Shown here: piece after piece, positions 7,970-44,600 of the stretch
Layout: every line of letters begins with the position of its first letter
How positions within the stretch are numbered: the first letter of the stretch is position 1
IMG/VR virus record: IMGVR_UViG_3300032225_000686
DNA: 64,000 nucleotides
Source: a virus
Taxonomy: Duplodnaviria; Caudoviricetes
Strand: one strand, 5' to 3'
Notes under the pieces: generated by a model
Told to the model about the DNA's origin: nothing
Seen by the model: only the letters and a program-made list of their open reading frames with translations
Databases searched by the model: none
Program-made: the position numbers and the translations under genes

Positions 7970-9415
7970 ATGGAACCAATCTTTGATCTAGGTGAGTGGC
8001 TACTCTTTGAGCGAGAGTATGATAGGGCAAATCGGGATGCTGCTGTCAAGTCCTTTGAGAAATTTAAGAAGACTGTTGGGGTCATTTTTGACACCAAGAA
8101 GGTCTTGGATGAGGTCTACTTTGTGCATAAAGATATTAAGAATGTGATCCCCGATAACGATATTTACACGATATACCCAAAGTTATGGTTTGCGTTCAAG
8201 GCAGCATTTAGCAAATACACAAGCCAATATCTTATGAGGTTTGCGACATTGGGTGGGGGTAAGCCCGACGATGTGGTACTAACCTTCAAGGCAGAGAAGT
8301 TGGGTTCGGTCAAGTCAGCAGGGTTTGAAGTTTACCCTCACTTTATCAAGCCACACAAGGATTGGAAGTTTCATGTAAAACTGACGAGTGCGAGCATAGG
8401 TGCAAATGTAGGCGGGCAATACAGCATGATGAACATATGGTTGCCGCGAGTATCTGCGATCAATCAAACCGATATTTGCAAGATGCTTCACGACTGTTAC
8501 AAGACCTATTCTGGTGTTTCCAAAAGAGTGGACAATAAAGCATCCCGAATTTACAACGCATGGCTAGAAGAGTTCATGAAGCAGGTAGAATCTAAGCGTA
8601 GTACCTACATTCATGAGTACATACACCACCTTGACCAATTGCGATACAAAGTAGCAGTTGGCGAGAGACCAAAGAGTATTGAGCGAGGCATCAAAGCATT
8701 CCAAGACGCAGAAGCCCCTAACCTAACCAAAGATCAAGTAACCGCAAAATATAATGAGTACTTTACTGATGATGCTGAACTAAATGCCTACTATCAGGAG
8801 ACTATGGGTAGTCTTCAAGATGCAGTACAGAAGTGGTTGATCGCAGCGACTAATACAAGAGCGTTGATTATCTTGGTTGACGGACAGACCATGACTCTCA
8901 CCATGCCTCCAATCACGATAGACGAGTTCAACAAGAAGTCTGTCAAGGAAAGATGCCGACTAATCTCTAGAGTTGTGCTTGCTGATTTCAACAGAATACT
9001 TCGTAGTGTTACGAATGGCAAAGATAGCATGGATTACCGAATCACAGGTGATTTGAAAGTCATCTACGATGCAAACTTCGGAAGCGTATCTGAAATATAC
9101 ATGAAGTTGGTTAGCAAGACTCTGTTTGCATATGCCAATTCGGCGTGGATCATGGCAGTCTTTAACAATCCAAGACTCAAGCGTAAGTTTATGAATCGCC
9201 TGTACTCCACAAGTCAGGACATCAAAGCCATTGTCAAAGATTATGAAAACGACATGGCAAACGGAAAGTCTCCGAGCATTCAAGAGTTCAACACCGCAAT
9301 TGAGAAAATGAGAAGCAACACACCCGGCATTCATGGGTTCCTTTATACGGGGCTTTTCATGCGGAGCGGCAAGCACTTTGACCCAAGGAAGAACTACTCC
9401 ATAAAAGACGCTTGA
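7970..9415 (+). CDS. zincin-like metallopeptidase-motif protein
   Basis: YIHEYIHHLD followed by ELNAY; start moved to ATG 7970, just after the late promoter. Confidence 0.6.
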   Translation: MEPIFDLGEWLLFEREYDRANRDAAVKSFEKFKKTVGVIFDTKKVLDEVYFVHKDIKNVIPDNDIYTIYPKLWFAFKAAFSKYTSQYLMRFATLGGGKPDDVVLTFKAEKLGSVKSAGFEVYPHFIKPHKDWKFHVKLTSASIGANVGGQYSMMNIWLPRVSAINQTDICKMLHDCYKTYSGVSKRVDNKASRIYNAWLEEFMKQVESKRSTYIHEYIHHLDQLRYKVAVGERPKSIERGIKAFQDAEAPNLTKDQVTAKYNEYFTDDAELNAYYQETMGSLQDAVQKWLIAATNTRALIILVDGQTMTLTMPPITIDEFNKKSVKERCRLISRVVLADFNRILRSVTNGKDSMDYRITGDLKVIYDANFGSVSEIYMKLVSKTLFAYANSAWIMAVFNNPRLKRKFMNRLYSTSQDIKAIVKDYENDMANGKSPSIQEFNTAIEKMRSNTPGIHGFLYTGLFMRSGKHFDPRKNYSIKDA

Positions 9416-9439
9416 CTTATCCCTTGGGTGTGGTATACT
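9412..9439 (+). promoter_or_regulatory. sigma70-type promoter, leaderless
   Basis: TTGACT-16-TATACT-6nt-ATG(9446). Confidence 0.8.
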
Positions 9440-9445
9440 TACTGT

Positions 9446-9700
9446 ATGGTAAAGCAACACTCCAGACCCAGTTTGGTCAATCCGAATAGGATGGTGTTCA
9501 ACACCCATTTTGAGTTCAAGAATGGATGGAAAGTTTCTATTTTCCGTCCAGATGACTACCCCCACGACAACCATACCGTAGAGGTCGCTGTAATTAACGA
9601 TGATGGGATGTTCGTGTCGTTCTTGGATGGCGAGAATGTAAAGCAATGCGTAGATGCAGATCAACTGTCCAAGATCATGGCATGGGCGGCAGATCAATGA
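9446..9700 (+). CDS. hypothetical protein
   Basis: ORF starting at the predicted +1; FKNGWKVSI...EVAVI. Confidence 0.6.
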   Translation: MVKQHSRPSLVNPNRMVFNTHFEFKNGWKVSIFRPDDYPHDNHTVEVAVINDDGMFVSFLDGENVKQCVDADQLSKIMAWAADQ

Positions 9701-10272
9701 AGAATGTCTTTTTTATAGGCTGCACCCACTTCGGTCATGAGAAGATGTACTCGTTCGTCCGTAAGGATGGAACGAAGGTTCGCCCATTCGCTAACGCTGA
9801 ACAGGGAGATGCCGAGATGATGGCGCGATGGAATGCCACCGTTGGCAAGGATGACAAGGTGTATGTCCTTGGAGATGTGGCAATAACCAACAAGGGACTT
9901 AAGATTTTAGGCGAACTCAAGGGTCGCAAGATTCTTATCAAGGGCAACCATGATATCATGAAGCCGGGGGAGTACCTGAAGTACTTCAAAGATATTCGTG
10001 CATACCACAAGATGGAGAATGAGGTGCTTTCGCACATACCGATTCATCCTGCCTCTCTGTTCCGCAGCAAGAAGAATCGTTATTGGCTTAACATACACGC
10101 CCACCTACACAACGATGCCGTGATGGGTAGTGAGCCAAACGATCCCGATGATGCATTCCGTTCTTGCCAAACAGAAGACCCGCGATACTTCTCCGTTTGC
10201 GTTGAGCGTATCAACTACACACCGATTTCTTTGGACGAGATCAGAAGCAGAACTCGTAATGCTATTACCTAA
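9697..10272 (+). CDS. calcineurin-like metallophosphoesterase
   Basis: CTHFGH, LGD, GNHD, HxP and HAHLH motifs. Confidence 0.85.
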   Translation: MKNVFFIGCTHFGHEKMYSFVRKDGTKVRPFANAEQGDAEMMARWNATVGKDDKVYVLGDVAITNKGLKILGELKGRKILIKGNHDIMKPGEYLKYFKDIRAYHKMENEVLSHIPIHPASLFRSKKNRYWLNIHAHLHNDAVMGSEPNDPDDAFRSCQTEDPRYFSVCVERINYTPISLDEIRSRTRNAIT

Positions 10273-10744
10273 CAAGTGCAAAGATATTGAAACTCTGTGC
10301 CTTTGGGTTATTGAGAAGGCTACCAAGTTAGAGCCGCGAGTCATCAACGAACTCAAGCGGCACAAGTGGTGGCTTTTGAGGGACTACTCTAAAGGAAGAG
10401 ACACACCTGAAGTCTACTGCATGTTTGTAGAGATTGGGTTGGACTCTCCTCCTATTATTGTCAACAATACAGCCATCCTGTGTTGGTCTCCGAGACCATA
10501 TGAATGGTCATTTGCTGAACGACTTATACGCAAGTTTAAGCGTAAAGACTACCCCCGAAGAGGTGATGTTCTTTCTGTCATATCGGGAGGCAACACTTGG
10601 TTTGAAGTCAAGCAGGAGTATGCAAGAGCAATGCCTGCATCCTCTCTTCGAATTTTGTGGAACTCCATGATGAATCAGGGGTGGTCTTTGGTTGCACAAG
10701 GAGAAGTTGCAGCATCAAACTATTCACCTATGGAGGCAGCATGA
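10259..10744 (+). CDS. ARxxWxxLxxxGW-family protein
   Basis: C-terminal LRILWNSMMNQGW. Confidence 0.6.
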   Translation: MLLPNKCKDIETLCLWVIEKATKLEPRVINELKRHKWWLLRDYSKGRDTPEVYCMFVEIGLDSPPIIVNNTAILCWSPRPYEWSFAERLIRKFKRKDYPRRGDVLSVISGGNTWFEVKQEYARAMPASSLRILWNSMMNQGWSLVAQGEVAASNYSPMEAA

Positions 10745-11073
10745 AGCAATGGACTTTACGAGATTCAAACGCACGGTGGATTGATTTCTTCAACAACAAC
10801 AAAGAAACCAATTCAATCTGTATTCAGGCTGCTAACTGTGACAGACTAGATTTGTTCAAGGCAGGTGTCTTATTTGATGAAAGCGTTGGCTTGAACATGG
10901 TTGTAGTCTCACTAGAAACCGCACGAAAGGCGTGGGATGAGTTGATTGATTTGGGATTCACCCGATACATCCCACCAGAACTGTACACCAACGGAAGAAG
11001 AAGAAGCAGACTTACTAGAACAAGATTTATTCCCCAATTGGAGGTTGATGATGTCACGAATCAAGGAAACTAA
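10741..11073 (+). CDS. ARxxWxxLxxxGW-family protein
   Basis: ARKAWDELIDLGF; GGAGG SD. Confidence 0.65.
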   Translation: MKQWTLRDSNARWIDFFNNNKETNSICIQAANCDRLDLFKAGVLFDESVGLNMVVVSLETARKAWDELIDLGFTRYIPPELYTNGRRRSRLTRTRFIPQLEVDDVTNQGN

Positions 11074-11275
11074 AGGTAGATTTTGTATTGACGAGCAGGG
11101 AGCATGGTTGGAGATCGAACACGACGAGGAGAGCAACAATCTATGCATTATTGGCAAGAATTGGGTGTATCTTGATCGTCAGCAAACCGGAAGACTTTAT
11201 GATTGGCTCAAGAAGAACCTGCGACGAATGACTTCCTACAAGAAGGTACGGGAAAAGGGAATCAAAAATGGATAA
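11048..11275 (+). CDS. hypothetical protein
   Basis: GGAGG SD; operon packing. Confidence 0.55.
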   Translation: MMSRIKETKGRFCIDEQGAWLEIEHDEESNNLCIIGKNWVYLDRQQTGRLYDWLKKNLRRMTSYKKVREKGIKNG

Positions 11276-11552
11276 AGTGACTAGCGATTACCGAATCATA
11301 CACATCACCGAGAAGAACATTCCTTGGTATGGGGTCTACGAGGTTTACTATCATAATGATACCCCCATAGATCACAGCGTTGCACCAGTTGGTCTGTTTG
11401 GAGATATGGAAGATATTTTGGCGGGCATCAATGATTTTAAGGATGCTCTAAACAAGCCAATATTGAAGGATACCGATTTCCCTCCTGTACACGATCATCG
11501 TAGGGGAGAGTGGATGCAGACCAAGAATGCAATAATCGTCCCTAGACGGTGA
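11268..11552 (+). CDS. hypothetical protein
   Basis: YRII...YGVYEVYY...ALNKPIL; overlaps the upstream stop. Confidence 0.6.
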   Translation: MDKVTSDYRIIHITEKNIPWYGVYEVYYHNDTPIDHSVAPVGLFGDMEDILAGINDFKDALNKPILKDTDFPPVHDHRRGEWMQTKNAIIVPRR

Positions 11553-11578
11553 ATAGATACTAATTCAAGGAGAACACA

Positions 11579-11779
11579 ATGGCAAAGAAGAAGAACACCA
11601 AGAAGAAGACCAAGTTGAGCAGAACAACCAAGAACTATGTTCGTGCTCGCCTGAACAAGGACACACCATACGAAGTCGAATTCATGTATCTCAAGCCCGT
11701 ATCAACAGGAGGCTTGAGTGGATTTGGCAAATGGCTCGTCGGTCTTCTCAAGAAGGTCAAGACCTTTATTTGGAAGTAA
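11579..11779 (+). CDS. small basic hypothetical protein
   Basis: AGGAG SD. Confidence 0.55.
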   Translation: MAKKKNTKKKTKLSRTTKNYVRARLNKDTPYEVEFMYLKPVSTGGLSGFGKWLVGLLKKVKTFIWK

Positions 11780-12048
11780 TGGCAAAGGTATCTGTAAAGA
11801 ATCCTATAATAGTCAGACCAACAAAGCACACTCCGCTTGTTGTTGAGGGTGTGGGTACAACCAGCATTCAAGAGATGAGCAACCGCATCTCGCAAATTCT
11901 TGCTACTATCGCCAACGGAATGCAGAATGACGATGACGATGCGGTTCTATATTTGCAGGAATCAATGAGCAAAGGTTCAGAACTCTTCAAGTTAGTTGAG
12001 GGGCTGAACGCAGCGAAACAGTATGTAAATGCAAGGAGACCAATATGA
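11779..12048 (+). CDS. hypothetical protein
   Basis: TAATG coupling to the upstream gene. Confidence 0.55.
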   Translation: MAKVSVKNPIIVRPTKHTPLVVEGVGTTSIQEMSNRISQILATIANGMQNDDDDAVLYLQESMSKGSELFKLVEGLNAAKQYVNARRPI

Positions 12049-12230
12049 CAAACGATGCATTTCAAGGAACAGGTATGTGTGAAGAGCGTTGGCAAAAACT
12101 AATGGACAACGCCGATTTGGAATTGACACCCGGTGAGATTTGTGCGGGATGGCATTGGTGCAATGCTTTTGATGGTCTGCTTGTTCACAGGACTTGGGAA
12201 GAGATGGAGGTTTGTAAGTGCCATGAATAA
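12045..12230 (+). CDS. small Cys-containing hypothetical protein
   Basis: SD; ATGA overlap. Confidence 0.5.
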   Translation: MTNDAFQGTGMCEERWQKLMDNADLELTPGEICAGWHWCNAFDGLLVHRTWEEMEVCKCHE

Positions 12231-12441
12231 ACAATACATGGAAGAAGTTTGGGGATCAAAGTGTCCCGACTATGAACCCACCTGCTTTTTATGCAGAGCA
12301 TGGGTGATTTACGAAGTAACAGGAAACATCCCCGATTCAGAGCAGGTGGTTCGTAAGATACATGAGACCGAGGGGTGTGACTTCTTACAGTCACCCACAT
12401 TCAAGAAACTACGAGACTGCGCTCACCGCAAACCACAATGA
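12223..12441 (+). CDS. small Cys-containing hypothetical protein
   Basis: WGSKCPDYEPTCFLCRAW. Confidence 0.5.
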   Translation: MNKQYMEEVWGSKCPDYEPTCFLCRAWVIYEVTGNIPDSEQVVRKIHETEGCDFLQSPTFKKLRDCAHRKPQ

Positions 12442-13250
12442 TAACTTTCAAGAGATTGGGTAGATGGGGAAGATTGGGGAACCAACTCTTCCAATACGCT
12501 ACAATGGTTTCCGTTGCAAAGCGGAATTACTATGATTATGGCATACCCAAAGAAAATACTCTTTTGCCCGCTAGGTTTGGCGATACCGAAAATGTGTATA
12601 AGTGTGATATCTTTGATCTGTTCGATGCAGATAAAGAGTGTCACCTATACGATAATCTAATTGCCGACCACTATTACGAAGACCTATCCTGTTACTACAA
12701 CACAGAGGTTTTCAATATCAAAGACAATACAGATATTCTTGGTTACTTTCAGGGAGAACAGTATTTCTTGTGGTGTGAGGCTTTGATACGAGAAAAGTTT
12801 AGGTTTAGATCTACTCTAGTAGAAGAGGCAAAGAAATACATGGATGTTTCTTTGTTGCGAGATCCCATAGCACTTCATGTCAGAAGGGGGGATTATCTGA
12901 ACCTCCAAACCGTACACCCAATACCTTCAATAGAGTACTATAAGAAATCCTTGGAAATGTTGGATCACCGAGGAAGGGTTGTTTTGGTTTTTAGTGACGA
13001 TGTTTCGTGGGTAAAAGAAAACCTAGCAGAGGAACTTCAGTCGTTGGTTGTTGTTGAAACCCATAATCAAAACCTAGACCTAATTCTAATGAGTCAATGC
13101 AAGGACTTTGTGATAGCCAATAGTTCTTTTAGTTGGTGGGGAGCATGGCTATCCGAAAACTCATCAAAACGAGTCATGTGTCCGAAAAATTGGTTTGGGA
13201 ATCACACCAATCCCCTACAGCAAATGACTCGTCACTTCGAACTTGTATAA
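12438..13250 (+). CDS. GT11 alpha-1,2-fucosyltransferase-family protein
   Basis: GRLGNQLFQYA, HVRRGDY and NSSFSWWGAW motifs. Confidence 0.9.
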   Translation: MITFKRLGRWGRLGNQLFQYATMVSVAKRNYYDYGIPKENTLLPARFGDTENVYKCDIFDLFDADKECHLYDNLIADHYYEDLSCYYNTEVFNIKDNTDILGYFQGEQYFLWCEALIREKFRFRSTLVEEAKKYMDVSLLRDPIALHVRRGDYLNLQTVHPIPSIEYYKKSLEMLDHRGRVVLVFSDDVSWVKENLAEELQSLVVVETHNQNLDLILMSQCKDFVIANSSFSWWGAWLSENSSKRVMCPKNWFGNHTNPLQQMTRHFELV

Positions 13251-13260
13251 GGAACTCACA

Positions 13261-13905
13261 ATGCTTTTGGATATTCAGCAACTAGCAAACAAGTATTTCT
13301 CCAATCTCAAGGGCGTTTTGCATGTAGGTGCTCACTTTGGTCAAGAAATAAACGAGTACCGTAAACTTGGTTGCAAAAACATGTTGTTCTTCGAACCACA
13401 ACCATCAGTTTTGCCCAAACTGTTGGCAAATGTTTCACCAAAACACGAAGAAAATATTTGGGTCTATCCTTTTGCTTTAGGAAATTTTGACGGCTCTATT
13501 GAGATGAATGTCGAAACTGCAAATGGGGGAATGAGCAGTTCCCTTCTAAACGCAAATATTCATTCTGTACAGTACCCACACATAGTGTTTCATAGCAAAG
13601 TTACAGTAGATATCAGAAAACTTTCAACCATCGTGCATGATGATTGTATTGATATGACAAAGTACAACCTCATGAATGTTGATGTTCAGGGCTATGAAAT
13701 GGAAGTGTTTAAAGGGGCAGAGAGTCTATTGCATCACATAGACTACATCATAACAGAAGTCAATACTGAAGAATTGTATTATGGTTGCCCCATGCTTTAC
13801 GAGATAGATTCGTACTTGATATCCAAAGGATTTCTCCGAAGAGAAATGAGTATGGATGGGGGTAATTGGGGAGATGCTTTATATGTCAGAGTTCAGAACT
13901 CGTAA
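13261..13905 (+). CDS. FkbM-family methyltransferase
   Basis: HVGAHFG, FEP and VDVQGYE motifs. Confidence 0.9.
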   Translation: MLLDIQQLANKYFSNLKGVLHVGAHFGQEINEYRKLGCKNMLFFEPQPSVLPKLLANVSPKHEENIWVYPFALGNFDGSIEMNVETANGGMSSSLLNANIHSVQYPHIVFHSKVTVDIRKLSTIVHDDCIDMTKYNLMNVDVQGYEMEVFKGAESLLHHIDYIITEVNTEELYYGCPMLYEIDSYLISKGFLRREMSMDGGNWGDALYVRVQNS

Positions 13906-14030
13906 CGATCCGACTTCCACCGCTTACGCAATCTGCGGGGATCGGTCTCGTCGGTCTTCTTGCTCCACATCTTGACTCGCTGCTGCTGCGGTCCCCGTGG
14001 AGGGAACTTTGGCTTCTTGGTCTTCTTCAT
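13893..14030 (-). CDS. 45-aa basic protein missed by the ORF track
   Basis: MKKTKKPKFPPRGPQQQRVKMWSKK...YEF*, preceded by TTGACT-17-TATACT-7nt. Confidence 0.6.
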   Translation of the reverse strand: MKKTKKPKFPPRGPQQQRVKMWSKKTDETDPRRLRKRWKSDRYEF

Positions 14031-14087
14031 TTCAACGAGTATAACCCCCGACTGAATAAAAGTCAATACCATTTTGTCAGTTTCCTC

Positions 14088-14116
14088 TTGACAGATATGG
14101 GGAATACTGTTATAGT
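14088..14116 (+). promoter_or_regulatory. sigma70-type promoter, leaderless
   Basis: TTGACA-17-TATAGT-6nt-ATG(14123). Confidence 0.8.
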
Positions 14117-14122
14117 AGTAGT

Positions 14123-14371
14123 ATGAGATTTCGCTACACAGTCTATCTGTTAAGCCATCCTGTGAAGGGGCAAATGAGGATTGTTCGCAACAACAACATG
14201 AATTTATTTTTGTTTTTTGATCCCAACACCGTCTCTACTGCAAAAGAGTGGATAATCCAAGAGGCAAGGAGAGAGTGGAATAAATTGATCTCCGAGGGTT
14301 GGTCATACAACAATATACCAATCCACACCGACAACCATGTTGGTGTCGAATTCGCCGTGTCTCACTCCTAA
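14123..14371 (+). CDS. ARxxWxxLxxxGW-family protein
   Basis: ARREWNKLISEGW. Confidence 0.65.
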   Translation: MRFRYTVYLLSHPVKGQMRIVRNNNMNLFLFFDPNTVSTAKEWIIQEARREWNKLISEGWSYNNIPIHTDNHVGVEFAVSHS

Positions 14372-14384
14372 TAAGATAGTTCAA

Positions 14385-14615
14385 ATGACCGCCAAACCTT
14401 TCAAACACGACATAGTGGACAATCTGTTTGATCGTGGCGATGAACTGTCAAGGGCTGCGGGTAGTGAAATCCTGCGCCTGCGTCAACTGATGCAGGGCAT
14501 ATGGGGCATCTACTACAGCAAAGAGTACAAAGACGATGAGACCCGCTTTCGAAAGATGGTTTACCGACTGAACGAAGGACTTTCCGAGAACTCCAACTAT
14601 CCCAACTACTACTGA
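14385..14615 (+). CDS. hypothetical protein
   Basis: DIVDNL...AGSEILRLR. Confidence 0.55.
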   Translation: MTAKPFKHDIVDNLFDRGDELSRAAGSEILRLRQLMQGIWGIYYSKEYKDDETRFRKMVYRLNEGLSENSNYPNYY

Positions 14616-14622
14616 GGACACC

Positions 14623-14868
14623 ATGATCTACTTTTATAGCAACGACAACACCGAACGCACCTCTTGGACCATGCCCGAGATGGCCGATTTCTTGCGAGAG
14701 ATTGAACCTACTCTTGATTTCTCCGACCGTGAGTTGGAGATGTGGGTTGAGTACTTCGTGAAGTTGAACATTCTTGAGGTTGTGTGGGACGAGGAAGGTT
14801 CGCCCAACTATCGCCTGACCCCATACGGCAGGATTGTTTCACGATCTGTGAAGGAGAACAACAAATGA
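14623..14868 (+). CDS. hypothetical protein, winged-helix-like C-terminus
   Basis: YRLTPYG motif; GAGG SD. Confidence 0.55.
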   Translation: MIYFYSNDNTERTSWTMPEMADFLREIEPTLDFSDRELEMWVEYFVKLNILEVVWDEEGSPNYRLTPYGRIVSRSVKENNK

Positions 14869-14948
14869 GAGCGAATGTAACTAAAAATGGACCTTGACTT
14901 CCTGCCCGAACTTGTTATAGTAGAGGTGTAAAGAAAGGACAAGAGACC

Positions 14949-15227
14949 ATGACCAAGAACCCAAACGAATACGAATTCCTGACCTTCAAGACCGACCGCC
15001 GCACGAAGAAGGGCGAGAAGTTGGTGGACAGATACACCAAGGTGTTTGCGACTGCCGAGGATGCTCAGACTCACTTTGAGCGTCTGCCCAAGAAGGTTGG
15101 CGAGCGAGTGGAATGCCATCAGAAGTGGGTGGTCCGTAAGAATCTGTTGAGCGGCGAGGAGTTCTACGAGGCGTGGGATACGCCCGGCTTCTGCTCTCCG
15201 AGTTCTGAGTCCTATTGGAGCATGTGA
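14949..15227 (+). CDS. hypothetical early phage protein
   Basis: own promoter (TTGACT-16-TATAGT, 14894-14921) and SD; ends DTPGFCSPSSESYWSM. Confidence 0.7.
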   Translation: MTKNPNEYEFLTFKTDRRTKKGEKLVDRYTKVFATAEDAQTHFERLPKKVGERVECHQKWVVRKNLLSGEEFYEAWDTPGFCSPSSESYWSM

Positions 15228-15228
15228 C

Positions 15229-15540
15229 TTGTACTCCAAACTTTCTGCATCGGATTACAATATCGTGAGCACTTCGCACCCATCAAACCTTCCCAACTCC
15301 AATATCTTCTATATTCAGAAGACTTGCAACGATGGCACTAGGCTTACGATGCGGTTCGTGACCCATCCCGAGTATGTGTGGATTGAGAATCTCTCTACCA
15401 ATACCAATGTGGAAGTGAAGGGCAAGAATTGGAAGCATACCCGCGTGTTTGATGCCGATTCCTTGGAGAACTTCGTTGTCTCCTATGCTAGGGAGATTTG
15501 GGATTGCATGGTTGAGGACGGTTGGAGGTATGTCAAATGA
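15229..15540 (+). CDS. ARxxWxxLxxxGW-family protein
   Basis: AREIWDCMVEDGW. Confidence 0.65.
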   Translation: MYSKLSASDYNIVSTSHPSNLPNSNIFYIQKTCNDGTRLTMRFVTHPEYVWIENLSTNTNVEVKGKNWKHTRVFDADSLENFVVSYAREIWDCMVEDGWRYVK

Positions 15541-15866
15541 CCCCGACAGTACAACACACCTACCTGATATGCCCCTTGCCTGACTGTGGTGAGATTCTGT
15601 TCACTTACTACATCAACGACAATAATGCGGATTCTGCGGTTATGGTTCACAATCTGTCAAACCAGTCTTTGCTGATTGGGAATCTGTCTGCTTTGGCGGT
15701 TACAGGCAAGGCAAATACAAATGTGACCCCCTCTCCGAGGAACAGGACTTTAGACTTCACGCCCAACAAGAGAGCCATGGTTTCCAAGGAAGATGGCAGG
15801 ATCATATGGAACACTCTAATTGAGGGTGGGTGGACTGTAAACCGAATCAAGCAAGGAACGCCATGA
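15537..15866 (+). CDS. ARxxWxxLxxxGW-family protein
   Basis: GRIIWNTLIEGGW. Confidence 0.65.
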   Translation: MTPTVQHTYLICPLPDCGEILFTYYINDNNADSAVMVHNLSNQSLLIGNLSALAVTGKANTNVTPSPRNRTLDFTPNKRAMVSKEDGRIIWNTLIEGGWTVNRIKQGTP

Positions 15867-16117
15867 ACAAGATAAATGAAAGATTTTTCGTCCTCGTTTA
15901 CCCTACAGGACAAATAGACCAACCCCGATGGTCTTTTGGTATTGTAGATAAGGGAACCGAGAAGGAGAGAGTGGATGTTTGTAACTATTCAAGCATGGCA
16001 GTATTCCTACCAAGCATGAAGTATGCCCACAAGCCAAATGCCCTCCGCTGCTACCAGTTGGCAGATGCTCGCCTGTTGTGGGACTTTCTAGTAAAGGAGG
16101 GATACCGTGTCAGATGA
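15863..16117 (+). CDS. ARxxWxxLxxxGW-family protein
   Basis: ARLLWDFLVKEGY. Confidence 0.65.
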   Translation: MNKINERFFVLVYPTGQIDQPRWSFGIVDKGTEKERVDVCNYSSMAVFLPSMKYAHKPNALRCYQLADARLLWDFLVKEGYRVR

Positions 16118-16373
16118 CCGCAACATTTACGCTCTCATGGACCCCACCCATCCAAATGTTCAATTCACCTTCAGGCTAATGGGGAATGGTGGAATCGGGG
16201 TGTATGTTAGCAACAATACCCCGCATGACTATATTTTTGGATTTTTACACCCCGATAGTCAAATAACGGCAAAGCGACCGAACAAGTCAGGAAGCGTAAC
16301 TCTTTACGATACTGCCTCTGCCCGTGCTATTTGGGAATTCTTGGTAAACGATTGGCGAATGGTCAAGGCATGA
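16107..16373 (+). CDS. ARxxWxxLxxxGW-family protein
   Basis: ARAIWEFLVNDW; GGAGG SD. Confidence 0.65.
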   Translation: MSDDRNIYALMDPTHPNVQFTFRLMGNGGIGVYVSNNTPHDYIFGFLHPDSQITAKRPNKSGSVTLYDTASARAIWEFLVNDWRMVKA

Positions 16374-17325: not shown

Positions 17326-17430
17326 CGAGGGGACCAGAACACTTGGATTTTTACGGCCTTTTTCTTGGCCCTCGTTCTAAATACGGGTATACTTCGCACA
17401 CAGCGTACACAACGAACATGGAGATATACT

Positions 17431-18117
17431 ATGGCTCATGCTAATCAATACACAGGTAAGAATCATTTGGTTCGTGGGGTAGGTATAAATGACCTACCAA
17501 ATGAACCTATAGAATGGACTGAGAACGGCAAACGGGTACGCTGTCCAAAATATGTTTTGTGGAATGCAATTTTACAGAGATGTTACCGCCCGGGAAAATC
17601 TGAGATCATAGCATACAAAGGAGTCACGGTTCACCCCGATTGGATTTACCGTTCAAAGTTTAATGAATGGTTGAATAGCCAACCCCAAAACAATTGGCAA
17701 GAACTTCAAATTGACAAAGACCTGTTGGTAAAGGGCAACAAGGTTTACGGGCCTGATACCTGTTGCTTTTTGACTAATCAGGAGAATAATGTTTTTCGTC
17801 CTTTGACTTCAGATAGACTGGGATCTGCTGCTTTTGACAAATCTAAAAACTACAAAAAACCTTGGCGGGCTATGATTACTCAAAGCGGTATCAAAAGAAA
17901 TTTCGGTTACTTCTCAACCAAAGAAGAAGCAGAGTTTGTAGCCATGCGAGAGTTCATGCCGTATGTTATTGAAATTGCAAACGCTAATCCTCACAGGTTT
18001 ATTAGAGATGCCATGTACCGATGGATAGACGATTGGAAGCAGGAGTTGGCGGTACTAGAGGAAAAGGCAAGAGTGGCTACTTCTAGGAATGCTTTGCCGC
18101 TTTTTGAAATAAAGTGA
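17431..18117 (+). CDS. HNH-type homing endonuclease with AP2-like C-terminal domain
   Basis: GVGIND, WxxILQRCY, IDKDLL..GNKVYGPDTCCF and FGYFSTKEEA motifs. Confidence 0.75.
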   Translation: MAHANQYTGKNHLVRGVGINDLPNEPIEWTENGKRVRCPKYVLWNAILQRCYRPGKSEIIAYKGVTVHPDWIYRSKFNEWLNSQPQNNWQELQIDKDLLVKGNKVYGPDTCCFLTNQENNVFRPLTSDRLGSAAFDKSKNYKKPWRAMITQSGIKRNFGYFSTKEEAEFVAMREFMPYVIEIANANPHRFIRDAMYRWIDDWKQELAVLEEKARVATSRNALPLFEIK

Positions 18118-18707
18118 GCAACCTAGACTTTCTAAATTTGTATTGGGAGACCTGCGATTCTGTTAGCAGCATTCGAAAGAGTAGACATTTCTTAAAGTTG
18201 GATGAACTACTGACAGAACAGATATCAGGGATAGGGATAAGAGAAGACCCGATATCAACAAGGTACAAGGGAACCAAACGATGGGATATGCACTTTCCTG
18301 ATAAGAAGGTAGCCATCGAATACAAGACCCTATCTTCGTTCAGTAAGAATGGAACTAGTGGAGGGAGTCTAGGAAAGGGATTGGGGAACCGTCTAGAAGA
18401 GGCTATCGGTTCAGCATTCGATCTCAAACAGAAAGATTCAAATTATAGGTTGGGCTATCTGATCGTCTTTGTATTCAGGGACGAGAAGTCAAATTATGAT
18501 AGCGTAGTCAAGAGAGCGATAGATGTATTTGATAAGTTGATTGAGGATGGACTCTATGATTTCTTCTGCCCCCTGTTTACTAGGGGACTGAACACTCATG
18601 GGGAACTATCGGAAACTTACTCTTTCGATAGGTTTATTGGTGATATTAGGGCGGTTCGAATACCTGAATCCCACACTTTCCCACTATACCCCACTTCCCC
18701 CCACTAA
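18114..18707 (+). CDS. PaeR7I/XhoI-like PD-(D/E)xK restriction endonuclease
   Basis: TKRWD, AIEYK, GNRLEEAIGSAFDL and LGYL motifs. Confidence 0.6.
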   Translation: MSNLDFLNLYWETCDSVSSIRKSRHFLKLDELLTEQISGIGIREDPISTRYKGTKRWDMHFPDKKVAIEYKTLSSFSKNGTSGGSLGKGLGNRLEEAIGSAFDLKQKDSNYRLGYLIVFVFRDEKSNYDSVVKRAIDVFDKLIEDGLYDFFCPLFTRGLNTHGELSETYSFDRFIGDIRAVRIPESHTFPLYPTSPH

Positions 18708-18928: not shown

Positions 18929-20161
18929 ATGAGCATGACCCGTGAACAGACCCGTACCGCCTTCGTGACCGCCGCCTACACCTTGACTGGTGGCGAGCCG
19001 GTCATCACCCGTCCGCAAGTTTTGGAAGCCGCCGCGAAAGCCGGTGTGCCGAACCCCGCGTGGCTGACGAACGATCCCGCCTATCGCGCCGGTCGTGGGC
19101 AGTACCGTCTGCCGCCGATGCACCAAGCGTCCCGTCCTGCCGTTCCTGCCGCCCCTGTGGAGGAGGCTCCGATGGCTACCGCCGCTGCCCCGTGCAGTCT
19201 GGTGGACCTGAACTTGTCCATGCAGGCGATTGAGGCGGGTGGCTCTGCGGTCCCCTCCAAGGATTCGCTGTTCGTGCCGTATGGCGATCACGACACCATC
19301 GTGACCATCATCAAGAGCCGCCGATGGGCCCCTTCCTATGTGGTCGGTCCCTCGGGTTGCGGTAAGACCTTCTCGTATCAGCAGGCGTGTGCCGAACTGA
19401 GCCGCGAGTACTTCGAAGTCCAGATCACCTCGGAGACCACCGAAGACGATCTGCTCGGTGGGTTCCGTCTGGTTGCAGGAGAGACCAAGTTCGTCTACGG
19501 TCCCGTGGCTCTCGCCATGCTCCGTGGCGGGTTCCTTGTCCTTGACGAGATTGACCAAGCCACCAACAAGGTGATGTGCCTTCAGCAGGTTCTCAACGGC
19601 AAGCCCGTGTTCCTGAAGAAGATCAACCAGTGGGTCAAGCCCGCCGCAGGATTCAATGTGGGTGCGACCGCCAACACCAAGGGCAACGGTGACGAGAGCG
19701 GCCGATTCGTCGGGGCTAACCCGCTGAATGTGGCCTTCCGCGACCGCCTGTCAGGCATGACCTTCGTCGCTGATTACCCCGCCGCTGCCGTGGAGCGCAA
19801 GATTCTCGGCAAGGCTATGGAAGCCGTGGGCGTGAGCGACGAGGAGTTCGGCAAGCGTCTGGTGGAGTGGGCAGGCGTGATTCGCAAGACCAACCGTGAG
19901 GGCGGTATGGAAGAGACCATCACCACTCGCCGACTGGTTCAGATCTCGCAGAACCTCGCCATCCTCGGGAGCCGCGTGAAGTGTGTGGAACTCGGAACCA
20001 ACATCTACGACGAGGTGACCCGCGAAGCCATGCTCAACCTGTACAAGAAGGTTGACGAGGAGGCCGAACCGAAGGTGAAGGGGCAGGATGATCTCGGCAA
20101 GGCTCCCGTCGCTGCGGGAACCACCGCTGCCGCCGCCAACACCAACGCCTGTCCGTTCTGA
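18929..20161 (+). CDS. MoxR/CbbQ-type AAA+ ATPase (phage 'CobS-like')
   Basis: Walker A GPSGCGKT, Walker B VLDEID, ATANTKG and TTRRLV motifs. Confidence 0.9.
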   Translation: MSMTREQTRTAFVTAAYTLTGGEPVITRPQVLEAAAKAGVPNPAWLTNDPAYRAGRGQYRLPPMHQASRPAVPAAPVEEAPMATAAAPCSLVDLNLSMQAIEAGGSAVPSKDSLFVPYGDHDTIVTIIKSRRWAPSYVVGPSGCGKTFSYQQACAELSREYFEVQITSETTEDDLLGGFRLVAGETKFVYGPVALAMLRGGFLVLDEIDQATNKVMCLQQVLNGKPVFLKKINQWVKPAAGFNVGATANTKGNGDESGRFVGANPLNVAFRDRLSGMTFVADYPAAAVERKILGKAMEAVGVSDEEFGKRLVEWAGVIRKTNREGGMEETITTRRLVQISQNLAILGSRVKCVELGTNIYDEVTREAMLNLYKKVDEEAEPKVKGQDDLGKAPVAAGTTAAAANTNACPF

Positions 20162-20311: not shown

Positions 20312-20632
20312 ATGACTACGACCAACACCACACTCACGATCAAGCCGCGTCAGGCTAACTTCCTAGCCGCGTTTGAACTCAAGTACGGCCGCCCTGCTAC
20401 CGTCACCCGTAAGGCTCTTGTCTCGTTCAAGCAGACTTGGGCTAACGGGGAGAAGGGTCCGTTTGGATTCACTCTGCGTTGGCCTGCGTGGCTCACGAAC
20501 TCCAGTAACTTTACTGTTCAGCGAGCGATCTATGCCCTCCCGTGGAATGAGTATGATGCATTCTTGGCTTCTGCATCAAACGGTTCGCAGCCGGTTACTC
20601 CCACGGATGCCGCTGATCCTGCGACGAACTGA
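20312..20632 (+). CDS. stand-alone homolog of the MoxR N-terminal domain
   Basis: VTR...PAWLTN...RAIYALP aligns with MoxR ITR...PAWLTN...RGQYRLP; own promoter at 20271-20298. Confidence 0.7.
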   Translation: MTTTNTTLTIKPRQANFLAAFELKYGRPATVTRKALVSFKQTWANGEKGPFGFTLRWPAWLTNSSNFTVQRAIYALPWNEYDAFLASASNGSQPVTPTDAADPATN

Positions 20633-21455: not shown

Positions 21456-23774
21456 ATGACACAGACCCTCTCAAAGACAACCGTTGAATCCAAGGCAGTC
21501 CTCGCTCGCATGTTGGCCACCGAGAACCTGTCGGTGGAACACAACCCCAAGGCGGAGACCGCCTACTTCGATATCGAGAATCGGAAGTTGGTCTTCCCGT
21601 GTTGGGAGGGCATGACCGATCACCTGTACGATATGCTGGCAGGTCATGAGACCGCCCATGCCCTGTTCACGCCCGCCGGTGAAGCCGCCCTGTTCGAAGC
21701 CATCAAGGCAGTTGACCCGCGTCCTGAAGCCGCGTCTGCCGTGAAGGGTTACCTGAACATCGTGGAGGATGCCCGAATTGAGCGACTGGTCAAGGAGAAG
21801 TATCCGGGTCTGCGTCGGACCTTCTTCCTCGCCTATCAGGATCTGGTGAAGAGCGATATCATGGCTCCCGCCGTGCATCAGATTGCCACGCTGCGTCTGA
21901 TCGACCGAGCCAACATGCACTACAAGGTTGGAACCTTCGTGAATGTCCCCTTCACCGATGCGGAACTGCGTCTGGTGAAGCGAATGGCTACCACCAAGAC
22001 CTTCGAAGATGTGGTGGCTCTCGCCCGCGACCTGTGGCAGCATGAGAAGGATGAGAAGAAGAAGCAGGAGGAAGAGCAGAAGCAGCAGGAGTCGCAGCAG
22101 GGTTCTTCCGCTTCCTCTCCCGAAGGCGAAGAGGGCGAAGAGTCCGAGGCTAGCGGTAGCGATTCGCAGCAGCAGGAGAACGGCGAAGAGAACAAGGGCA
22201 AGGGTAAGAGCAAGAAGACCGAGGGCGAAGAGAAGCCTTCCGAAGAGAACAGCGGCGGTGGCAACTCCACGCCGAACAATGGTCAGGAGACCGAGGGTGG
22301 CGAAGGCGATAACAGCCCCAACAGCGGTGGCGAGCCGATGCCCGAGGAGAGCAAGACCGATGGGATGCTGAATGAGTACAGCAAGTCGAAGCGGAATGAA
22401 AAGGCCAACTACTTCGTGACCGCCGACCTGCCGAAGTTCAACACCGCGAAGGGCATCATCCCCGCTAGCACGGTGGTCCCGATGCTCGTTGAGTGTGGTG
22501 AGAAGAACAACGGTCTGAAGTTCTTCACCGAGTGGAAGGAGCGCAATGCCGAGAGCGTTGCCGTCCTGTGCCGCGAGTTCGAACGCCGCCGCGCTGCCGA
22601 AGCCGCGAGCCGTACCTCCATGAGCGATTCGGGAACGATTGATGTGAACCGCCTGTGGTCCTACCGCGTGAGCGACGAGATCTTCCGTCAGTACGCAAAT
22701 GTGAAGAATGGTCAGAGCCACGGCATTCAAGTGTTCGTGGACTTCAGCGGCTCCATGAGTGGCATCCTGTACGAGACCATGAGTCAGATGGTTTCCCTCG
22801 CTGCCTTCTGCCGCCGAATGAACATCCCCTTCGATGTCTACGCCTTCACCGATGGTCTGCCGACGCAATGGCTGACCGATGTGGATGGCGAGACCCTGCG
22901 GACAATGGGTTCGGATGGCTACAATAAGGAAATGAGTCCTTGGATTCAGACCGAGAAGACTATGAGAATGAGTCACACTCACTTCCGTCTGGTTCATCTG
23001 CTGACGAGTGGTCTGTCGGAGCGAAACTTCCGCATGGCCGTGGGTGGTATGCTCGCCATCGTTTCCCGTGCCGTGGCGGATAGCGATTGGGGTAGCGGCA
23101 AGGCCAATCGTAGTGCGGCTCAACTGTTCCGCCTGAATGGAACCCCGACCAATCAGGCAACGCTCGCCGCGATGACCATCATCCCCGAGTTCCGTAAGAA
23201 GAACAATCTGCAAATCGTCCACGCGGTCTTCCTGACCGATGGAGAGAGTGGTGACCGCTTCTCTGGTCCGACCAAGTACGAGAACATTTACGGTCGCAGC
23301 ACCGTTGATGTCTACGGTTACGAACTGCGCGATAGCGTGACGGGTAACACCGAGAAGGCGATGAATTCCTACTGCGCGACGAGTCAGAACCGTGCGCTGA
23401 ATCACCTGCTCGCCAAGCGTATCCCCGGCTGCAATGTGATCGGCATCTCCCTCTGCCCGACCCGCGAGTTCCGAACCAAGATGTCTGACGGTCTCGCCAA
23501 GCGGAAGAATCGCTACGGCTTCGATGTCGAGATGGAAGCCGCAAAGGTGAAGGGCTTCTGCGAGGCTGAGGACTGCTACGGTTACACCAAGTGGTTTGGA
23601 ATGAACGCTCCCCACCTTGATTCGAATGACTACTTCATGGGCATCACCGACGATGCACCGAAGGCAGTACTGACCAAGGCATTCGCCAAGACGATCAAGC
23701 AGGGTACGATGAACCGTCTGCTCCTGAGCCGCTTCGTGGACCTGATCGCTAATCACGGCGCGAAGAAGAATTGA
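21456..23774 (+). CDS. VWA-domain protein with N-terminal HExxH peptidase-like domain (MoxR partner, CobT-like)
   Basis: GHETAH, NIVEDARIE, acidic linker, MIDAS DFSGS...GTP...LTDG. Confidence 0.9.
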   Translation: MTQTLSKTTVESKAVLARMLATENLSVEHNPKAETAYFDIENRKLVFPCWEGMTDHLYDMLAGHETAHALFTPAGEAALFEAIKAVDPRPEAASAVKGYLNIVEDARIERLVKEKYPGLRRTFFLAYQDLVKSDIMAPAVHQIATLRLIDRANMHYKVGTFVNVPFTDAELRLVKRMATTKTFEDVVALARDLWQHEKDEKKKQEEEQKQQESQQGSSASSPEGEEGEESEASGSDSQQQENGEENKGKGKSKKTEGEEKPSEENSGGGNSTPNNGQETEGGEGDNSPNSGGEPMPEESKTDGMLNEYSKSKRNEKANYFVTADLPKFNTAKGIIPASTVVPMLVECGEKNNGLKFFTEWKERNAESVAVLCREFERRRAAEAASRTSMSDSGTIDVNRLWSYRVSDEIFRQYANVKNGQSHGIQVFVDFSGSMSGILYETMSQMVSLAAFCRRMNIPFDVYAFTDGLPTQWLTDVDGETLRTMGSDGYNKEMSPWIQTEKTMRMSHTHFRLVHLLTSGLSERNFRMAVGGMLAIVSRAVADSDWGSGKANRSAAQLFRLNGTPTNQATLAAMTIIPEFRKKNNLQIVHAVFLTDGESGDRFSGPTKYENIYGRSTVDVYGYELRDSVTGNTEKAMNSYCATSQNRALNHLLAKRIPGCNVIGISLCPTREFRTKMSDGLAKRKNRYGFDVEMEAAKVKGFCEAEDCYGYTKWFGMNAPHLDSNDYFMGITDDAPKAVLTKAFAKTIKQGTMNRLLLSRFVDLIANHGAKKN

Positions 23775-35516: not shown

Positions 35517-36272
35517 ATGACACGATTCTTTAGATACTTCGCCGCTGTAGCCGCAGTAGTTTTGGCACACAGCACTTTCGCTCAGACTGCTTCGGCTCCG
35601 GCTACGAAGGCATCACCTGCCATGTTCAACAGCGTATCGGTTGACGAGACCTTGACCTTCTGGGGCAAGAAGAATGTTGACACCGTTACTGAGTTGGACT
35701 CAACCATCAAGGGCAAGTTGTATGACCTGCTCGGTTGGCACATCACCGTTCCTGTTTATTCACAGGACACCACCGGTTATGGTGCTATTGATGTTGGTGC
35801 AGATTACGCTTTGTTCACAGGTGAGAAGTTCCTTGGCTCAGTCACCAACTTCAGCGTTGAAGCGGGTGCATGGATGCCAACAGGTTCGGCTGGTTACAAC
35901 ACCGACAATGTGAATCCACATGTTGGTTTCAACTATGACATGACTTGGGGTTCGATTGCCTACACACAGACTTTTGATGTTCTGTGGGTTGGTTCATATG
36001 CTTACACTCCTGTGTTTGGTAACTTCAACAACTACGGTCTCAACGCCGAGTCGTTTGTTGCCTACAAGTGGAGTAATCTACAGGTTGGCGTAGACCTGAA
36101 CCAATGGTACACCGAGGGTAGCAATGTTGCTTTCCTTGGGCCAAAGGCTGAGTGGAAGGTCTCCAACAATGTTGACCTGAACGCAGGCTTCGGCGTTCCA
36201 GTATGGCAGGAAGTAAACGCTGCCAACGAGAACAGTTGGAATGTCACCGCCGGTATCGGCATCAAGTTCTGA
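35517..36272 (+). CDS. outer-membrane beta-barrel protein (COG4313-like)
   Basis: Sec signal peptide, alternating aromatic strands, MPTG, C-terminal GIGIKF. Confidence 0.75.
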   Translation: MTRFFRYFAAVAAVVLAHSTFAQTASAPATKASPAMFNSVSVDETLTFWGKKNVDTVTELDSTIKGKLYDLLGWHITVPVYSQDTTGYGAIDVGADYALFTGEKFLGSVTNFSVEAGAWMPTGSAGYNTDNVNPHVGFNYDMTWGSIAYTQTFDVLWVGSYAYTPVFGNFNNYGLNAESFVAYKWSNLQVGVDLNQWYTEGSNVAFLGPKAEWKVSNNVDLNAGFGVPVWQEVNAANENSWNVTAGIGIKF

Positions 36273-43547: not shown

Positions 43548-44600
43548 ATGAAGATTGAAGAAGACATCAAGTTGGATTTCGCAGATGTGCTGATTCGCCC
43601 AAAGCGAAGCAATCTTGAGAGCCGAAGCAAGGTTGATCTAAACCGCACATTCAAGTTCACTTTGCCTAAAGGCGAAGAGACATGGACAGGCATTCCTCTT
43701 GTAGCGGCAAACATGGACTCTACGGGAACTATACCTATGGCTAAAGCCTTGTCCAAGTGGGAGGCTATGGGTGCGGTACACAAGCATGTTCCGATTCGTG
43801 AGTGGAAGGAAGCCAACATTCATGATTGGTTGCCCAACGCAATCTCATGCAACATCATCTACACGATGGGTATGGGAGACAGCAGCAGCAACATGAAGGA
43901 GATGCTAAAGGCACAAGAGGTTCTTGGTATGTACCCACAGATCAAGTTCATCTGTATTGATGTTGCCAACGGATACACGCAGAAGTTCGTAAACTTTGTT
44001 AGCAGTATTCGTGGCTTCTTCCCAAACCATATCATCATTGCAGGTAATGTAGTCACCCGAGAAATGACGGAGGCATTAATTCTCGCAGGAGCCAACATTG
44101 TCAAGATTGGTATTGGACCCGGCTCTGTATGCACCACGCGAAAGGTAGCGGGCGTTGGATATCCGCAACTATCCGCAATCATGGAGTGTGCTGATGCTGC
44201 TCACGGTCTTGGTGGATTTGTGATGGCTGATGGAGGATGCACCTGCCCCGGAGATGTTGCAAAGGCATATGGTGCAGGAGCAGACTTCGTTATGATCGGG
44301 GGTATGCTCGCGGGCGCGGACGAGGCAGCAGGAGAGATCACAGATAACGGTAAGGAGTTCTATGGCATGAGTTCTGCTGATGCTATGCAGAAGTACTCAG
44401 GCGGTGTTGCTACTTACCGTGCATCTGAAGGCAAGAAGGTTTATGTCAAGCCTAGCGGTCCTGCTGATGAAACGATCCAACATATACTTGGTGGAGTTCG
44501 TTCTGCTTGCACTTATGTTGGTGCAGAGAGACTTAAGGACTTGCCAAAATGCACAACATTTGTGAGGGTTAATCGTCAACTCAACAATATCTTCACCTAA
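43548..44600 (+). CDS. guaC: GMP reductase
   Basis: KLDFADVLIRPKRS, AANMD, CIDVANGY and GIGPGSVCTTR motifs. Confidence 0.95.
   Translation: MKIEEDIKLDFADVLIRPKRSNLESRSKVDLNRTFKFTLPKGEETWTGIPLVAANMDSTGTIPMAKALSKWEAMGAVHKHVPIREWKEANIHDWLPNAISCNIIYTMGMGDSSSNMKEMLKAQEVLGMYPQIKFICIDVANGYTQKFVNFVSSIRGFFPNHIIIAGNVVTREMTEALILAGANIVKIGIGPGSVCTTRKVAGVGYPQLSAIMECADAAHGLGGFVMADGGCTCPGDVAKAYGAGADFVMIGGMLAGADEAAGEITDNGKEFYGMSSADAMQKYSGGVATYRASEGKKVYVKPSGPADETIQHILGGVRSACTYVGAERLKDLPKCTTFVRVNRQLNNIFT

Follow-up and report, generated by a model that had tools for sequence, protein, structure and literature searches.

The present analysis concerns seven small genes in a 64,000-nucleotide stretch of viral DNA (IMG/VR record IMGVR_UViG_3300032225_000686; the whole stretch is hereafter called the window), whose products share a motif, AR-x-x-W-x-x-L-x-x-x-G-W. 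All seven lie on the plus strand and are named here by their first nucleotide: 10259 (10259..10744, 161 amino acids, motif at 10646-10684), 10741 (10741..11073, 110 amino acids, motif at 10921-10959, followed by a 37-residue tail), 14123 (14123..14371, 82 amino acids, motif at 14264-14302), 15229 (15229..15540, 103 amino acids from a TTG start, motif at 15487-15525), 15537 (15537..15866, 109 amino acids, motif at 15795-15833), 15863 (15863..16117, 84 amino acids, motif at 16067-16105), and 16107 (16107..16373, 88 amino acids from a GTG start, motif at 16320-16355). The last four genes form a tandem array in which 15537, 15863, and 16107 each overlap the stop codon of the upstream gene, and 10259 and 10741 likewise overlap their upstream genes. 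A preliminary description of this DNA had given these positions, the tandem order, and the motif sequences correctly. For 15229, a gene caller favours a 63-residue form; the 103-residue form is backed by homologs. Ortholog pairs with measurable divergence gave ratios of nonsynonymous to synonymous substitution rates (dN/dS) of about 0.08-0.44, which indicate purifying selection and thus real genes, and one nearly identical pair (5 changes) gave a ratio of about 1. Searches of the seven proteins against Pfam and PHROGs returned nothing significant, and an Atlas search with 15229 gave no usable match.

Across the six frames of the window, the strict pattern [AGL]R-xx-W-xx-[LM]-xxx-G-[WYF] had 6 matches, compared with a mean of 0.003 (maximum 1) in 300 residue shuffles, although this comparison overstates the significance since the pattern was written after the sequences had been seen. 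It had no match in 8 control phage loci, and an iterated family hidden Markov model matched, within the window, exactly these seven proteins. Only 16107 departs from the strict pattern, as it lacks the Gly and is one residue shorter. The motif had been described as C-terminal, but 19, 37, and 22 residues come after it in 10259, 10741, and 14123, respectively. Third codon positions of the motif have diverged (identity 0.36 versus 0.59 at positions 1 and 2); thus, the conservation is at the protein level, and a repeat or recombination site in the DNA was ruled out as the cause. In two cases, the motif's last codons provide the gene that follows and overlaps with its Shine-Dalgarno sequence (GGAGG before 15537 at 15520-15536 and AAGGAGG before 16107 at 16093-16106), which is translational coupling. 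This overlap was also rejected as the cause of the motif, since the motif is equally kept where long tails come after it.

Are the remaining parts of these proteins unrelated, as the preliminary description held? This turned out to be wrong for at least five of the seven. Relatives were gathered by synteny around a moxR gene (see below), from the contigs of homologs, and by searching 1.84 billion representatives with a profile; this yielded only 22 matches, the new ones aligning over most of the profile. The motif was then cut off, and each body was realigned and scored against 1000 shuffles with profiles lacking its own subfamily. This was done twice, with a different training set each time; the way in which the training sequences were found makes the test somewhat circular. 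The shuffle counts in the two runs were 0/1000 and 19/1000 for 15229, 5/1000 and 0/1000 for 15537, 5/1000 and 2/1000 for 16107, and 6/1000 and 7/1000 for 14123. Those of 15863 were 36/1000 and 888/1000, but its profile-profile comparison gave an E-value of 1e-4 over 56 columns. The signal of 10741 is weak (63/1000 and 85/1000, profile E-value 0.007). Weak signals are as expected at about 20% identity. The alignment of the relatives has a second pattern, in the body: a first strand that often has Pro at its end, a strand with Phe, a hydrophobic-x-hydrophobic-x-Asn stretch, and a further hydrophobic-x-hydrophobic strand. Columns 37, 39, 47, and 49 (15863 numbering) are 97-100% hydrophobic, and Asn41 is present in 22 of the 34 rows. 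Four array proteins of locus L084, which were outside all training sets, scored E-values from 0.002 to 7e-11 and show this body pattern. Together, the motif-free matches and these held-out proteins indicate, at the level of sequence, that five of the seven are paralogs over the domain and that 10741 probably is one. The motif-free body of 10259 gave no signal against the other six in either the shuffle or the profile test, and this protein, which detectably shares only the strand-helix-Gly-strand end with the others, may be an elaborated or chimeric member. Its predicted model, made from four sequences, is unreliable (predicted local distance difference test score, pLDDT, 43). A resemblance of its first strand to a subfamily encoded before moxR was rejected (E-value 0.26, worse than column shuffles).

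A predicted structure of 15863 (pLDDT 85, and 89-95 over residues 41-84) has strands at residues 8-12, 21-29, 36-41, and 60-65, a helix at 66-78, and a short last strand. The architecture runs from a beta-meander through the helix of the motif and a Gly cap to a final strand. The conserved residues of the motif lie on one hydrophobic face of the helix, and two strands of the body are as conserved in hydrophobicity as the helix itself. Thus, in place of a constant docking helix on unrelated bodies, the motif appears to form the helix, with its Gly cap, within one alpha+beta domain. This largely agrees with the outcome that the preliminary description had named as contrary to its own reading, a single ordinary fold with the Trp and Gly of the motif in the core; their burial would follow from the periodicity of the helix. 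Most likely, the shared motif is the core of this fold rather than a docking tag on unrelated proteins, and a helix that anchors the fold would be the last part to diverge. The helix Arg and Trp are invariant among the aligned members, an invariance which is partly due to ascertainment; Arg70 of 15863 flanks the hydrophobic face and could have a structural role or make a shared contact.

The top structural match of the 15863 model was DUF1651, followed by WGR and CYTH domains. For this one protein and a 98% DUF1651 cluster, both structures being predicted, the template modeling (TM) scores were 0.63/0.65 with a root-mean-square deviation of 2.3 over residues 5-84. Foldseek searches with the model against the PDB and BFVD gave no match at E < 0.001; the top viral rows were WGR-bearing proteins at E-values of 0.05-0.5. 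A sequence search of the PDB with the family profile reached an E-value of 0.19 at best. The seven window proteins did not match DUF1651 (PF07864, gathering cut-off 22 bits) at E-values up to 10. However, a relative, P0022, passes the cut-off with 28 bits over model positions 29-72, while P0021 and a protein of locus L001 score 17 bits; P0049 also carries the family. In the L001 protein, model positions 47-72 align to the motif region (C-terminal helix, Trp, Leu, and Gly-Trp). The member of coliphage ECBP5 scores only 12.9 bits. The resemblance to DUF1651 noted in the preliminary description thus gained support from a relative above the cut-off, from the alignment of the motif region, and from structure. 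Very likely, the genes arose as one small alpha+beta domain expanded within this lineage, and they represent a divergent branch of DUF1651 in phages. The fold would be WGR-like, with one helix that packs over an antiparallel beta-meander, then a Gly cap and a final strand.

In marine Synechococcus and Prochlorococcus, DUF1651 genes occur in several copies, lie in islands, and are induced by phage, and the family was described as confined to marine cyanobacteria and one coliphage (PMC5490813). Compared through the Pfam model and predicted structures rather than by direct alignment, the cyanobacterial proteins (SYNW1658, SYNW2106, SYNW1944, PMM0684, and PMM0819; PMC5490813) resemble the window family in size, fold (TM 0.63-0.65), the C-terminal helix-Gly-Trp motif, the presence of several paralogs per genome, and the tie to phage infection. 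In contrast, the window family is phage-encoded, occurs in tandem arrays of 6-9, is far more diverged, has an extra hairpin after the conserved Asn, and includes the seven proteins that do not match the Pfam model. Within the searchable literature, DUF1651 was named only by PMC5490813, and both a phage-encoded, arrayed expansion and the assignment to a WGR-like fold appear to be unreported there. A family described as almost confined to marine cyanobacteria thus extends to a multi-copy, fast-turnover family of freshwater T4-like phages. When the SYNW1659-1658 operon was disrupted, the median burst size fell from 52 to 35, an effect that the authors were unable to assign to a particular gene (PMC5490813). 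The present family bears on a question raised there, namely what makes cyanobacteria retain DUF1651 genes that phages induce and that may increase phage yield, since a phage with seven diverged copies suggests that the domain serves infection.

The source of the family is a clade of uncultured freshwater T4-like phages. The window is part of a T4-like myophage with clamp, clamp loader, RegA-like, and polymerase genes (named by eye) and 15 tRNAs, and it is identical to locus L023, which comes from a 176,208-bp ENA metagenome scaffold. Seven is the copy number within the window; 6 copies each were found in 20 kb of locus L020, 4.9 kb of locus L037, and 8 kb of L084, and at least 9 in the partial genome G003. 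A 145-kb close relative (L007/G002, IMGVR_UViG_3300045125_000034) has genes full of frameshifts, probably from sequencing error, and its copy count is unreliable. The tree has many well-supported subfamilies on long stems and poorly resolved deep forks. The 161-residue gene, 10259, represents the most conserved subfamily and the steadiest member, with orthologs in at least 10 metagenome loci. A second member comes after it in every locus examined, its subfamily varying. After the 15229 ortholog, L020 has two different members in place of 15537, 15863, and 16107. It is strongly supported that the copies are of ancient origin, that their subfamilies number at least 10, that purifying selection acts on them, and that tandem arrays acquire and lose them. 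In large phages, small early genes are known to expand into sets of paralogs.

Sigma70-type promoters had been reported in front of all seven genes. This stands at the level of operons, with strong candidate sites on the plus strand at 9412..9439, 14088..14116, and 14894..14921, but only 14123 has its own. The first heads an ORF at 9446, a metallophosphoesterase gene (9697), 10259, and 10741, and the third heads an ORF at 14949 and the four-gene array (15229-16373), both being consensus matches only. The site at 14088 ends 6 nt before the ATG of 14123, whose mRNA would be leaderless, and the same layout precedes the L020 ortholog. The other six genes likely sit inside early operons, giving three such operons in all; that the seven genes are early is inferred from the promoters. 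Across the whole region, 28 sigma70-type sites were counted versus 22.1 +/- 4.7 by chance. In at least seven strong promoters (9412, 14088, 18895, 21420, 32353, 40458, and 46414), the -10 hexamer ends 6-8 nt before the ATG, which implies many leaderless early mRNAs. Most of these read CTTGAC-17-TATAAT-like, and the same layout precedes family genes in loci L002 and L020.

What might the proteins do? I put a probability of roughly 0.5 on an expansion of DUF1651-like binding modules, each probably with a different host target. The functional half of this reading, early non-enzymatic binders with a host target each, is tentative and stands slightly below even odds when taken alone. Host-type promoters would drive their synthesis as infection begins, and the proteins would work as binding modules without enzymatic activity. 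The face of the helix would stabilize the domain, and the target of each paralog would be set by the sheet's open face together with the highly variable loops. These targets would most likely be different host proteins, in takeover or counter-defence, and the array would be a toolkit of exchangeable parts built on one scaffold. The preliminary description was right in seeing a diversified family of small proteins, and its idea that variable surfaces engage different host targets is plausible. No set of catalytic residues is conserved among the aligned family members. The net charge of the family is near zero (mean -0.4), unlike that expected of a typical DNA-binding protein or of a DNA mimic. 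Since seven copies share little but the core, a separate target for each is the simplest explanation. A partner common to all the paralogs is possible in view of the Arg-Trp pair. For screens aimed at anti-defence or host takeover, the family offers candidates that are small and foldable. The findings do not amount to a new docking-tag system.

An unlikely alternative, although the most probable of the rivals, keeps the fold and changes the ligand to nucleic acid. The paralogs would then be stand-alone WGR-like early regulators or protectors of phage DNA, acting on DNA ends, promoters, or RNA, each with its own specificity. It is kept because WGR domains, the next structural neighbours after DUF1651, are described as nucleic-acid binders. 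One paper presents WGR as a domain with which MolR-like factors, including those in jumbo phages, bind DNA (PMC7824862), and another as binding RNA and as fused to ligases and PARPs (PMC7470946). Moreover, a DUF3387-DUF1651 operon mutant made less phage DNA (PMC5490813). WGR domains (PF05406; PARP1/2/3, Bacteroides Q64V53 in PDB 2ra8, and E. coli YehF/MolR) appear to share with the window family the beta-meander, the crossing helix, the Gly-aromatic cap, and the last strand, and stand-alone phage and bacterial versions of WGR exist. However, the Trp-Gly-Arg hairpin signature is absent in all 34 aligned members, which have Asn-x-Ser/Thr in its place, and the helix is about one turn shorter. WGR domains are mostly basic, while the window family is neutral, with no conserved basic residue but the helix Arg. 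No Pfam WGR match was found, and profile comparison (hhalign) against 21 WGR domains gave probabilities below 1%. At most, the family works like WGR without being a member. The resemblance to CYTH/triphosphate-tunnel proteins (PH1819, 2een; class IV adenylyl cyclase, 2fjt) is read as a common arrangement, since the window domain is only half a barrel and lacks the conserved acidic or basic catalytic residues.

Less probable again is a role as substrate adaptors or clients of a MoxR ATPase and its peptidase-VWA partner, with the surface around the Arg-Trp pair contacting the machine. The MoxR AAA+ ATPase gene (18929..20161, plus strand) has its own promoter and encodes the 'CobS' of T4-like cyanophages and pelagiphages, with 41-47% identity to their proteins. 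The presumed partner (21456..23774, plus strand) had no Pfam match and is assigned by motifs and by synteny with the 'peptidase' beside CobS in Kyanoviridae (PMC7824862). The support for such a role is circumstantial. In G003, members flank the moxR-VWA block, one of them 0.45 kb ahead of moxR and two after the VWA gene, the first of which overlaps its stop codon; in G004 a member immediately precedes moxR, and in locus L066 one is found 2 kb ahead of it. In E. coli, yehF (PF05406, WGR) is upstream of the MoxR gene yehL and the VWA gene yehP, and the invariant helix Arg and Trp would fit contact with the machine. On the other hand, three cultured Kyanoviridae have the same CobS-peptidase pair and no detectable family member (a remote one could be missed), while five clade records gave family matches as positive controls. 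The gene after the VWA gene is a non-member in the window and in G004, and many copies lie 5-20 kb from moxR. The neighbourhood is explained without a functional tie, because both are probably early genes. The pair is a separate conserved module with its own promoters, and its tie to the seven proteins is only hypothetical. Still more speculative is a scheme that I consider improbable, in which DUF1651-fold proteins are phage-borne host-takeover binders, an array of 6-9 members delivers host targets such as defence proteins via the Arg-Trp surface to MoxR/peptidase-VWA, and the phage-induced cyanobacterial DUF1651 proteins are captured relatives that phages still exploit.

The least likely reading is that of the preliminary description, a portable linear docking helix on unrelated bodies with a single partner, for example host RNA polymerase or a protease (neither of which any evidence in this analysis points to). 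It draws on the motif being the strongest conserved element and the sole one detectable in 10259 and on body sizes of 45 to 127 residues. Against it, five of the seven have motif-free body homology, the helix belongs integrally to a compact domain and is modelled there with high confidence, DUF1651 proteins end in the same helix, and the 22 database matches include no stand-alone motif and none fused as a tail to a known unrelated domain, except for one spurious-looking repeat protein.

Several neighbouring genes were also observed. A free paralog of the MoxR N-terminal domain lies at 20312-20632 of the window, and its orthologs at the same place in L002 (12424-12735) and L001 (8145-8519) indicate conservation in the clade. 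Between the array and moxR (17365-18707), there is an HNH-like homing endonuclease gene and then a weak match to the XhoI nuclease family (PF04555, E-value 0.005, below the cut-off); a similar endonuclease gene lies after the family member in locus L032 and before moxR in L066. At 12438-13905, the two family clusters are kept apart by genes for a GT11 glycosyltransferase and a Methyltransf_21 protein, and since L020 holds other genes in that slot, this is a variable island. In the same early region of relatives (L020:11814-12816, L024:14890-15324, and L017:8494-9496 on the minus strand), there are genes, absent from the window, whose products end in Val-Pro-x-Pro, a hydrophobic stretch, and a basic tail as judged by eye; they had no Pfam or NCBIfam match. 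This ending, again by eye only, resembles the PEP-CTERM-type sorting signal of Phycisphaerae (Planctomycetota) and is possibly a hint to the host. Two further window genes could help to identify the host, a host-like GMP reductase gene at 43548-44600 and, at 35517-36272, a gene for a beta-rich protein that has a signal peptide and no family matches.

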